A stretch of 52,938 nt of DNA, from NCBI GenBank assembly GCA_043811795.1, contig JBDRMV010000012.1:1-52938 (forward strand), written 5' to 3'. The translations under genes and the position numbers were made by a program. Shown here in pieces: positions 33,469 to 35,097 of the stretch (within the stretch, counting starts at the first letter, position 1; the number at the start of each line of letters is the position of its first letter). The DNA comes from a bacterium. GTDB taxonomy: Bacteria; CG03. A model generated the notes under the pieces. That model was not told the DNA's origin. It made no database searches and worked only from the letters and a program-made list of their open reading frames with translations.

Positions 33469-33918
33469 TTATCTCCGGGGTCTCTCATTAAGTTCTTTAA
33501 AATCCGCTTTTTTCTTAAGGTTTTCCCTCTTGTCGTATAATTTCCTGCCCTTGACCAGAGCAATTTCAAGTTTCACAAAACCCTTCTTAAAGTACAAACT
33601 CAGCGGAATGGCCGTCAATTTTTTTTCCTGCGTTTTATAGAAAAATCTCGCAATCTCTTTTTTATGGAGCAGAAGGCGGCGGAGCCTCAAAGGGTCCGCT
33701 TTTTCTAACGTCGAATGGACGTAAGGGCTTATGTACATCCCAACGACTTCCGCCTGATTTTCATTGAACTTGACATAAGCGCCCTTCAAATTGGCGGCGC
33801 CGTCCCTTATCGACTTCACCTCGCTCCCTTGCAGCGCAATCCCCGCCTCTATTTTTTCAATGATAGCGTAATCGTGGAACGCCTTCCTGTTTAATATTTT
33901 TATTGACTTCGGCTTCAT
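33469..33918 (-). CDS. smpB: SsrA-binding protein SmpB
   Basis: The SmpB sequence is typical: NRKAFHDY, GIALQGSEVKS, LLLHKKEI and a basic C-terminal tail. Confidence 0.92.
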   Translation of the reverse strand: MKPKSIKILNRKAFHDYAIIEKIEAGIALQGSEVKSIRDGAANLKGAYVKFNENQAEVVGMYISPYVHSTLEKADPLRLRRLLLHKKEIARFFYKTQEKKLTAIPLSLYFKKGFVKLEIALVKGRKLYDKRENLKKKADFKELNERPRR

Positions 33919-33931
33919 TTTGATTTATTAT
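33903..33931 (+). promoter_or_regulatory. Candidate promoter of tRNA-Leu
   Basis: TTGACT (33903-33908), 17 nt, then TATTAT (33926-33931). It lies about 25 nt upstream of the mature tRNA 5' end and inside the smpB 5' coding region on the other strand. Confidence 0.45.
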
Positions 33932-33955: not shown

Positions 33956-34039
33956 GCCGGAGTGGCGGAATTGGCAGACGCGCTGCGTTCAGGGCGCAGT
34001 GGGCATTAGCCTGTGTGGGTTCAAATCCCTCCTCCGGCA
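33956..34039 (+). tRNA. tRNA-Leu (anticodon CAG), class II with a long variable arm
   Basis: The acceptor is GCCGGAG/CTCCGGC and the D-arm is GCGG-AATTGGCAGA-CGCG. The anticodon stem is CTGCG/CGCAG with loop TTCAGGG. The T-arm is GTGGG-TTCAAAT-CCCTC with one U-U mismatch. It is close to E. coli tRNA-Leu(CAG). No CCA is encoded. Confidence 0.9.
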
Positions 34040-34312
34040 AACTCTAAATTTTTCACAGGGGATTTGAAGCCGACCCGAGCGCCACTGGTCCGAGCGAGGG
34101 CGGCCGGCTTCGGATGAGGAGCGGCAGCGACGAGGGAGAAGAAATCCCTCCTCCGGCAAATCTTAAATTCTTCACAGGGGATTTGAAGCCGACCCCTGCC
34201 TGCCGGCAGGCAAGGCGAGCGCTCCCGAGTCGAGCGAGGGCGGCCGGCTTCGGATGAGGAGCGGCAGCAACGAGGGAGAAGAAATCCCTCCTCCGGCAAA
34301 CTCTAAATTCTT
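34023..34312 (+). repeat. Tandem repeat of the tRNA-Leu 3' end (three copies) with about 100-120 bp GC-rich hairpin units
   Basis: AAATCCCTCCTCCGGCAAA occurs at 34023-34041, 34142-34160 and 34282-34300. Each copy is followed by (C/T)TCTAAATT(T/C)TTCACAGGGGATTTGAAGCCGACCC. The units end in GAGCGAGGGCGGCCGGCTTCGGATGAGGAGCGGCAGC(G/A)ACGAGGGAGAAG. Confidence 0.85.
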
Positions 34313-34383
34313 AATGGTGTCCCATAATTGTGCAAGTCGTAGCGGAATTGTAGAAAAGAAAAAGCAGGGCGTCCCCTTTTTTT

Positions 34384-35097
34384 CTATAAACTGAACTTCC
34401 CGGGAAAATCCGTAAAAATTCCTCCGGCTCCGATGGAAACCATTTTCCTGAACGTATTCTCGTCATTCGCCGTCCAGACATTAAGTCCGAAGGCTTTTTC
34501 GCGAAGAATTTCCGCAAGAGTTCCCGTCGCGAAAAGACATTCGACTCCGGCGGCGGAAGCGCCCGTTTCGCCGAGTATTCTGAGAATTTTATCCGGGGCC
34601 GCTGCGCCTTTGAAATTAAGAGCACAACGGCGGGCAGGGAATTTTTTTTTAAGTTTTTTAACGGCGGACGGCAGAAAAGAGCAGAACTGAAACTCAGGGA
34701 AAAGAGGTCTCGCCCTGATAATATCACAGAGAACTTCCGAAGTTTCCTCCGCAAGGTTGTCATTTTCCGCTTTTATTTCGATAACGAGAATCTTTCCGTA
34801 ATTTTTTACAAGGTTTGCGACTTCGGAAATTTCCGGGATTTTTTCTCCGCCGCCTGCATTTAATTTTTTCAATTCTTCAAGCCCGTAATCTGAAACCCTT
34901 CCCTTCCCGTTTGTTGTCCTTTCAAGAGCGCTGTCGTGAAATGCGACAAGTTTTCCGTCTTTTGTCAGGCGTATATCGCATTCAACGGCGGCGGCAGGAG
35001 ATTCAAGTCCGAGGCGGAAAGATTTAAGCGTGTTTTCGGGGGCAATGCCCGCAGCGCCGCGGTGTCCTATAACAAACTGTCCCCCGGCAGAATTCAC
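34384..35097 (-). CDS. Glycerophosphodiester phosphodiesterase (GDPD family)
   Basis: It has the N-terminal IGHRGAAGIAPENT plus ECDIRLTKDG and HD motifs. Confidence 0.88.
   Translation of the reverse strand: MNSAGGQFVIGHRGAAGIAPENTLKSFRLGLESPAAAVECDIRLTKDGKLVAFHDSALERTTNGKGRVSDYGLEELKKLNAGGGEKIPEISEVANLVKNYGKILVIEIKAENDNLAEETSEVLCDIIRARPLFPEFQFCSFLPSAVKKLKKKFPARRCALNFKGAAAPDKILRILGETGASAAGVECLFATGTLAEILREKAFGLNVWTANDENTFRKMVSIGAGGIFTDFPGKFSL

Follow-up and report, generated by a model that had tools for sequence, protein, structure and literature searches.

The stretch of DNA analyzed here, the window, comprises positions 1 to 52,938 of contig JBDRMV010000012.1, from a bacterial metagenome-assembled genome (MAG) of 1.74 Mb in 161 contigs that is called G000 below (C-numbers denote contigs). 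It carries a transfer RNA (tRNA) gene, tRNA-Leu(CAG), and on the same strand behind it lie two units, 119 and 140 bp long, that both close with an exact copy of nucleotides (nt) 57-73 of that tRNA. The comparisons presented here suggest that these units are probably tandem copies of a small (~105-130 nt), non-coding, strongly structured and horizontally mobile element, which we term family A and which would insert at the 3' part of tRNA and transfer-messenger RNA (tmRNA) genes. The features of the locus are given below, where X stands for the duplicated tRNA segment, X' for the arm complementary to it, and P1, P2, P3 and P3a for helices of the predicted fold.

33903-33931, + strand: promoter-like site TTGACT-17-TATTAT, 25 nt upstream of the tRNA (consensus match only)
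33956-34039, + strand: tRNA-Leu(CAG), complete, with no encoded CCA and with a U50-U64 mismatch in the T-stem (ARAGORN and Rfam)
34023-34039, + strand: X0, tRNA nt 57-73, AAATCCCTCCTCCGGCA, the segment that is duplicated
34040-34056, + strand: spacer s1, AACTCTAAATTTTTCAC, which is not found behind this tRNA in G001, a genome of the same genus
34057-34065, + strand: arm X'1, AGGGGATTT, complementary to tRNA nt 57-64; 5' strand of helix P1
34066-34141, + strand: core of unit 1, 76 nt, GAAG...GAGAAG
34069-34076 with 34098-34104, + strand: P2 of unit 1
34108-34111 with 34138-34141, + strand: P3 of unit 1
34118-34122 with 34127-34131, + strand: P3a of unit 1, with tandem G.A pairs and loop GGCA
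34142-34158, + strand: X copy 1, exact tRNA nt 57-73, its first 8 nt being the 3' strand of P1
34159-34175, + strand: spacer s2, AATCTTAAATTCTTCAC, differing from s1 at 4 of 17 positions
34176-34184, + strand: arm X'2, AGGGGATTT
34185-34281, + strand: core of unit 2, 97 nt, the unit 1 core with an insert and several substitutions
34194-34215, + strand: 22-nt palindromic insert at the tip of P2 of unit 2
34282-34298, + strand: X copy 2, exact tRNA nt 57-73
34299-34312, + strand: third, partial copy of the spacer, AACTCTAAATTCTT; the repeat ends at 34312

ARAGORN and Rfam agree on the identity of the tRNA, the only one called in the window, which scores 49.5 bits in Rfam against a gathering score of 29. 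X0 holds the last 4 nt of the T-loop, the 3' strand of the T-stem, the 3' strand of the acceptor stem and the discriminator. An earlier reading of the window from its letters (the sequence-only reading) had described two extra copies of this 3' end at 34142 and 34282, and both are indeed exact 17-nt repeats, at spacings of 119 and 140 bp. It was also right about the repeated flanks, as the spacer (14-17 nt) occurs three times and the arm AGGGGATTT with the core twice, X and X' being identical in both units, and about the extra palindrome of unit 2, the insert to which the global identity of only 72% between the two cores is due. The U-U mismatch that it had reported in the T-stem (GTGGG/CCCTC) is present and is not a sequencing error, since an independent MAG of the same genus, G001, has it too. 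However, the same reading had explained this mismatch by replacement of the 3' part of the gene with an attachment (att) copy borne by an element; G001 carries an identical tRNA-Leu(CAG) gene, U50-U64 included, with no unit behind it, and the mismatch is therefore unrelated to the insertion.

A search of G000 retrieved the same 76-nt core directly behind three more tRNA genes, Gly-GCC (C157), Gly-CCC (C96) and Gly-UCC (C102), the core of window unit 1 being 93-97% identical to these three. Each core is preceded by a 5' arm that is the reverse complement of the T-loop and T-stem of its own tRNA (GGGGTTC pairs with GAACCCC, GGGGAATC with GATTCCCC and GGGGATTT with AAATCCCT), and is followed on its 3' side by an exact copy of nt 57-73 of that tRNA. 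One core serves four tRNAs with matching arms, which an element with a single att specificity cannot explain. Among the four copies X' differs at only 3-4 nt, and changes are far denser there than in the core, a concentration that points to templated rewriting, to pre-adapted guides or to exchange of the core between resident elements by gene conversion.

A covariance model, R1, was built from nine family A copies and run on a set of 26 genomes of the phylum, all of them MAGs, where it found family A in 13 genomes across five families. Each of the 34 copies that escape truncation at a contig end sits immediately 3' of a tRNA and on the same strand; the targets are Leu-CAG/UAA/GAG/CAA, Gly-GCC/CCC/UCC, Thr-UGU and Ser-UGA/GGA, i.e. 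at least 10 tRNA species. The order is the same in every copy: tRNA, spacer, X' (7-10 nt, complementary to nt 57-63/64 of its own tRNA), conserved core, and exact tRNA nt 57-73, plus CCA where this is encoded. The junction always falls between the C56- and R57-equivalent positions of the T-loop and reads RRAG/RANNCCC, the slash marking the exchange point. CCA is included in the copy wherever the genome encodes it, and no post-transcriptional CCA is seen in copies from CCA-less genomes. Tandem pairs are common, and the contigs of relatives often break inside the repeats.

The alignment of 34 copies supports five helices, named P1, P2, P2a, P2b and P3. P1 is formed by X' with the copied nt 57-62 and corresponds to the pairing of AGGGGATTT with AAATCCCT that the sequence-only reading had drawn inside each unit; it is paired in 97.9% of cells, with several pair types, and covaries with the T-loop of each target. 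P2 is a long stem that contains the hairpins P2a and P2b, and P3 joins an internal CTYY with the RRAG directly before the copy. Overall, 84.9% of cells are paired, compared with 68.2% in shuffled alignments, none of 500 of which reached the observed level, and with 36-51% after sliding of the partners; covariation scores 0.375 vs 0.143 in the control, and double changes occur in 22 of 30 pairs. P2a and P2b were not in the model that aligned the copies and so give independent support. Two other pairings put forward earlier fared differently: GAAGCCG.CC with GGCCGGCTTC can be drawn in the window but has no covariation in the 34 copies (236 of 500 shuffles as good), and neither has the T-arm-like hairpin GAGGGA-GAAGAAA-TCCCTC (223 of 500); in their place the alignment favours GCCG-A-CCC/GGG-CGGC (P2) and CTTC/GAAG (P3). 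The element is thus predicted, with the backing of this covariation, to fold as a three-way junction in which P3 would stack on P1, so that the strand RRAG/R57 would run continuously through the junction point, the branched P2 domain lying opposite. The apical hairpin P3a shows compensatory changes (GACGC/GCGTC, GCCGC/GCGGC, AACGC/GCGTT); a version of it with tandem G.A pairs (GGAGC-GNRA-GCGAC) is conserved in G000 and across many other phyla. The sense strand is purine-rich, and in 49 of the 58 copies compared its fold is more stable than that of the antisense strand, which suggests that the fold is strand-specific. A permissive scan of the window with Rfam 15 (cmscan, E<=10; hammerhead, twister, pistol, hatchet and tRNA-like families included) gave no match to the units; apart from the tRNA-Leu it returned only chance-level matches, a tRNA-Sec on the minus strand (E=0.7) and a PreQ1 aptamer outside the units (34644-34675, minus strand, E=5.2).

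Evidence for mobility comes first from the comparison with G001, whose flanks are 92-98% identical to those of G000. G001 lacks any family A copy and has empty sites at all four target tRNAs of G000, the window array included, which is therefore not shared by all relatives. At Gly-GCC, G001 equals G000 minus the spacer, X', the core and the 17-nt copy; only nt 57-73 are duplicated, the proximal spacer being foreign and the distal flank native. At Gly-UCC, the native 17-nt trailer of the empty site is found twice in G000, flanking X' and the core, and the duplication measures 34 nt, from nt 57 to 17 nt past the gene; likewise, 12 nt of the native trailer are duplicated at Leu-CAA in G008. In genus g4, a tRNA site that is filled in one genome can be empty at the orthologous tRNA of another. 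Profiled over 41 loci, the identity between tRNA and copy is near-perfect over nt 57-73 and then drops to background, at a point that varies; some distal X copies are truncated. Family A copies also decay by internal deletion: a solo spacer with X' and the first core bases remains at Thr-UGU in G004 and G008, and a solo core end, GGGAGAAG, at Gly-UCC in G009. All three X copies of the window carry the host-specific U64 that is also present in the element-free G001, and thus derive from, or are kept identical to, the resident gene. A CCA asymmetry at locus L097 was considered as a sign of an element-borne proximal copy and rejected, as other tRNAs of that genome also lack an encoded CCA. The integration proposed by the sequence-only reading stands insofar as the duplicated 3' ends mark inserted DNA, given that G001 has the same tRNA without units, and the T-loop, where the junction lies, is the classical site for elements that enter tRNA genes; what finds no support is the idea of decayed remnants of larger integrase-borne islands, or of a tRNA-derived tandem satellite, because the units are full-length members of a dispersed structured family.

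The architecture is not restricted to this phylum. A pattern that describes the architecture only, written for tRNAs with the T-loop TTCGATT (GGTTCGATTCC, N16-46, GGAATCGAA, N68-98, GGATTCC), was run on 185,579 species genomes and gave 44 loci, against ~0.06 matches expected by chance. They come from Elusimicrobia (including three genomes of the phylum set), Endomicrobiales, Omnitrophota, Saccharibacteria, Moranbacteria, Parcubacteria, Colwellbacteria, Planctomycetia, Verrucomicrobiae, Lachnospiraceae, Eubacterium and Clostridia, and 4 of the 44 are preceded by tmRNA genes; two Anaerovoracaceae matches are false positives due to a neighbouring tRNA-Tyr, and the single Verrucomicrobiae match, L089, was set aside as unclear. 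The cores of the Omnitrophota, Parcubacteria, Saccharibacteria and Planctomycetia copies are homologous, as R1 scores 56-91 bits on them; it does not match the Lachnospiraceae-type cores, which form a further core family with the same architecture. Family A is carried by 4 of ~375 genomes sampled from other phyla, and IMG/VR viral contigs gave 0 matches. The core of unit 1 is 92% and 87% identical to those of G289 and G236, genomes that are kin to G000 at the domain level only, and merely 61-63% identical to the copies of genus g4, which belongs to the same family as G000; judged by these identities, core similarity runs against phylogeny.

Some copies depart from the common form. A long variant of family A has a ~100-nt expansion of the P3 domain (GGTGCCGGTCGCGATGAATAAAGAGCGACGACCGAG...) and is found at loci L043 and L032 (G005) and at locus L125 (G008 C19), the last of which wholly lacks X' and P2. 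At locus L027 (G016 C22), both X copies behind tRNA-Gly(CCC) are interrupted in their acceptor-strand part (1430-1480 and 1610-1660) by a ~28-nt GC-rich hairpin (CCTGCACCGCGAGGGGCGCAGGGCGCGG), a nested mini-insertion. A73 is the usual identity base of leucine tRNAs; at locus L030 (G015 C123) the tRNA-Leu(UAA) gene has T73 and the downstream copy A73, the only case observed in which function seems better preserved in the distal than in the proximal copy.

G000 holds a second set of such copies, family B, with a different core and the same architecture, behind tRNA-Tyr and tRNA-Ser(CGA); families A and B together tag 6 of its 44 tRNA genes.

C8:7357-7520, C157:8882-9045 and C102:1-140 of G000: family B copies, core ~145 nt, GGGGATTCGAA-AGCCGGAGCGATGCGCGAG...GTGACC

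Family B is also present behind tRNA-Tyr in G001, which is without family A. Two clusters of the order Tyr-Gly(UCC)-Thr-Trp are found in G000, 92% identical over 234 nt, the one on C8 without a family A unit and the one on C102 with it; the two versions reflect either strain heterogeneity or contamination in the MAG. On C102 (380-600) the resident, G001-like tRNA-Thr(GGU) is apparently interrupted: its 5' part, GCAGGATAGCTCAGTTGG, and its 3' part, GGTCGGCGGTTCAATCCCGCTCCCTGGCT, flank an insert of ~190 nt that holds a complete, different tRNA-Thr(GGU) gene and a GC-rich hairpin. Moreover, a 22-nt hairpin, TGTT(G/T)CA(T/C)CCGCCTGTGG(T/C)GGG, stands directly after a GAAG in two unrelated copies, at C96:11466-11486 of G000 and inside the core of locus L045 (G006 C59); its core, CCGCCTGTGG[CT]GG, occurs 6 times in G000.

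Around the window array, no terminator-like site was found in a scan between the tRNA-Leu gene and the units, and this, together with the promoter-like site upstream, suggests that the tRNA and the array are likely co-transcribed. The palindrome CTGCCGGCAG, one occurrence of which is the insert of unit 2, is found at 12 places in G000 compared with ~1 expected, and may be a separate mini-palindrome element. Downstream, G001 has no equivalent of the ~70 nt that separate the array from the shared flank (TATAAACTGAAC), and at 34339-34350, 27 nt past the array, GTAGCGGAATTG matches 11 of 12 positions of the 5' region of the tRNA-Leu, GTGGCGGAATTG (33962-33973); this stretch could be what is left of a tRNA 5' fragment or of another element.

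Proteins that could move the element were sought around the copies and in the carrier genomes. Clustering of the open reading frames of 68 loci gave only host genes (EF-Tu, SerRS, SmpB, an ABC ATPase, a response regulator) and no linked mobilisation gene. As the sequence-only reading had observed for the window, no integrase lies nearby, and neither an integrase nor a relative of insertion sequences (IS) was found near the copies in these 68 loci, a negative that comes from MAGs ~92% complete. Tyrosine recombinases (PF00589) are encoded by all 26 phylum genomes; G000 has only two such genes, both Xer-like in score and size, and no cognate integrase with the same att was found in it. The Y1 (HUH) transposase PF01797 is present in 11 of 13 carriers and 10 of 13 non-carriers, with no correlation, and is missing from the carrier G014. 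Reverse transcriptase (RVT_1, PF00078) occurs in 4 of the 26 genomes, one of them a carrier; its absence from 12 of the 13 carriers, G000 included, disfavours a retroposon mechanism.

If family A is a mobile element, as we think probable, it would be moved in trans by an enzyme encoded away from it. Since 12 of the 13 carriers lack a reverse transcriptase, movement would take place at the DNA level, and the moving form would probably be a folded single strand. X' could serve as a guide or splint, bringing nt 57 of the target strand up against the 3' end of the element within a continuous P3-P1 helix, a model suggested by the fixed 56/57 junction, the variable right end, the complementary arm and the abutment of P3-P1 on nt 57. 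Joining at this point would leave the tRNA gene intact and give a duplication whose left end is always nt 57 and whose right end varies, and the other end would be resolved by repair synthesis re-copying nt 57 onward. The tandem pair of the window would then have arisen by repeated insertion at the regenerated target or by duplication of a unit. A bolder version, which we put forward tentatively and think rather unlikely, is that of a new class of guide-programmed mobile elements free of protein genes, in which a ~100-nt three-way junction of single-stranded DNA or RNA would carry a P3-P1 splint and a rewritable arm of 7-10 nt choosing nt 57-63 of one tRNA or tmRNA gene, would be joined at the T-loop by a ubiquitous host enzyme (ligase, topoisomerase, Xer-type) or by itself, and would spread between phyla.

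Several points weigh against a mobile element of this kind. The case for its transposition is made by comparing sequences, and some of the similarity across phyla could stem from binning errors in MAGs. The foreign spacer at Gly-GCC fits an att segment carried by the element and the native duplications at Gly-UCC and Leu-CAA fit a target-site duplication, and no one mechanism yet covers both patterns. X' would also have to come to match each new tRNA, whether through pre-adapted guides, templated copying or exchange of the core between resident elements by gene conversion. Evidence on the chemical nature of the fold is mixed, so that it may be either RNA or single-stranded DNA, G.U (26) and A.C (32) cells being about equally frequent in the helices. 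Finally, the presence profiles of tyrosine recombinases and Y1 gave no candidate enzyme.

Some of the same evidence can be read in other ways. Direct repeats that run from the T-loop to the 3' end of the tRNA recall the T-loop class of integrases, for which the T-loop of tRNA genes is the integration site (PMC1762012), and the tandem accretion present here is known from cis-mobilisable elements (CIMEs), integrase-less remnants that are mobilised in cis (PMC5704250). Together with the foreign proximal spacer and native distal flank at Gly-GCC, this would be in line with classical att scars, that is, CIME-type remnants of T-loop tyrosine-integrase islands stacked by accretion and shrunk to ~100 bp. 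We find this improbable, as the core is 93-97% identical behind four tRNAs with matching arms each time and keeps a conserved fold backed by covariation, unlike decaying sequence; moreover, native spacer is duplicated at Gly-UCC and Leu-CAA, no integrase is found near 68 loci or, beyond the two Xer-like PF00589 genes, in G000, and viral contigs of IMG/VR have 0 matches. The elaborate conserved fold, with its purine-rich junctions, GNRA-like loops and a sense strand that is the more stable one in 49 of 58 copies, could instead belong to an RNA module useful to the host, a co-transcribed 3' trailer acting in processing, stability, regulation or as a decoy, kept by selection and spread mainly by recombination rather than transposition. 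Also in its favour, no terminator separates the tRNA from the array, and the two window units agree fully in X and X' but differ in the spacer, at 4 of 17 positions. Such a module has little probability in our view, for the congener and half of the phylum lack it, carriers have it behind only a minority of their tRNAs, copies decay by deletion and can have truncated distal X copies, near-identical cores are spread patchily across phyla, and G.U pairs are not enriched.

That same lack of G.U enrichment counts against mobility through RNA, in which X' would guide a ribozyme-like attack on the pre-tRNA between nt 56 and 57 and the chimeric RNA (core plus nt 57 to the end of the transcript) would be copied back as DNA, in the manner of short interspersed nuclear elements (SINEs). 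This scheme accounts for the fixed end at nt 57, for the variable right end as the 3' end of the transcript, for U64 and for the duplicated native trailers, and the topology of two helices flanking the junction, with a branched domain opposite, resembles that of small ribozymes. Yet 12 of the 13 carriers, G000 among them, lack RVT_1, no Rfam ribozyme matches the units, and copies from genomes without an encoded CCA show no post-transcriptional CCA; we hold it to be very unlikely. As for an assembly artefact or a purely local tandem duplication, G000 is a fragmented MAG and contigs of its relatives often break in the repeats, but the units differ from each other (119 vs 140 bp, substitutions) and independent assemblies, made in many studies and from many phyla, show the same architecture, which leaves this explanation a negligible probability. 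The reading as a small structured mobile element is the one that we carry forward to the comparison with known systems.

Full-text literature searches gave no published description of such elements; what they returned were the T-loop sites of integrases and CIMEs. Like the islands of T-loop tyrosine integrases and CIMEs, family A targets tRNA and tmRNA genes, repeats the segment from the T-loop to the 3' end of the gene and leaves the gene intact, and with CIMEs it shares tandem accretion and a non-autonomous nature. Unlike them, it is only ~100 nt long, has no cargo, a three-way-junction fold and an antisense arm X', one core is used with arms for many tRNAs, native downstream DNA is sometimes duplicated, and no cognate integrase was found. 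The attC sites of integrons and the attP of CTX phage resemble it in that an imperfect inverted repeat closes the structure, the exchange point is sharp, arrays are formed and everything 3' of the exchange point matches the partner site; however, family A has no GTTRRRY/RYYYAAC core sites as in integron attC, its junction being RRAG/RANNCCC and its closing arm the complement of the T-loop, it targets T-loops of tRNAs rather than attI or dif, and it has the branched P2 domain.

Repetitive extragenic palindromic (REP) sequences and REPINs, moved by RAYT, and the ends of IS200/IS605 are also small protein-less hairpin elements moved in trans with a single-strand logic, and in IS200/IS605 a few guide bases pair with the target at the cleavage point; in contrast to family A, they leave the target unduplicated and have targets other than tRNA T-loops, and Y1 is uncorrelated with family A. 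Miniature inverted-repeat transposable elements (MITEs) have in common with family A that they are short, non-coding and multi-copy, with an inverted repeat closing the element and a direct repeat of target DNA on either side, but the inverted repeat of family A is specific to the target and not to the element, its site specificity is extreme, its duplication of 17-34 nt has a fixed left end and a variable right end, and no parent IS was found. A tRNA intron differs in that a complete tRNA precedes every family A copy, and a SINE-like retroposon in the reverse transcriptase that 12 of 13 carriers lack. Family A is apparently a so far undescribed, site-specific and non-autonomous element of tRNA genes, and there is a substantial chance that it represents a new class of its own.

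Genes for tRNA and tmRNA are classic landing sites of large integrase-borne islands; here, a tiny non-coding structured element without a gene of its own would be using the same landing spot in many phyla. It would account for pseudo-tRNA 3' fragments that annotation pipelines would read as prophage scars, and its repeats also break MAG assemblies at tRNA loci; if confirmed, family A would be a widespread and overlooked component for the annotation of bacterial genomes. It would also offer, if confirmed, a natural case of target choice by a short guide at a universally conserved site, and would point to a trans-acting or self-catalysed activity of possible use for site-specific insertion at tRNA genes.

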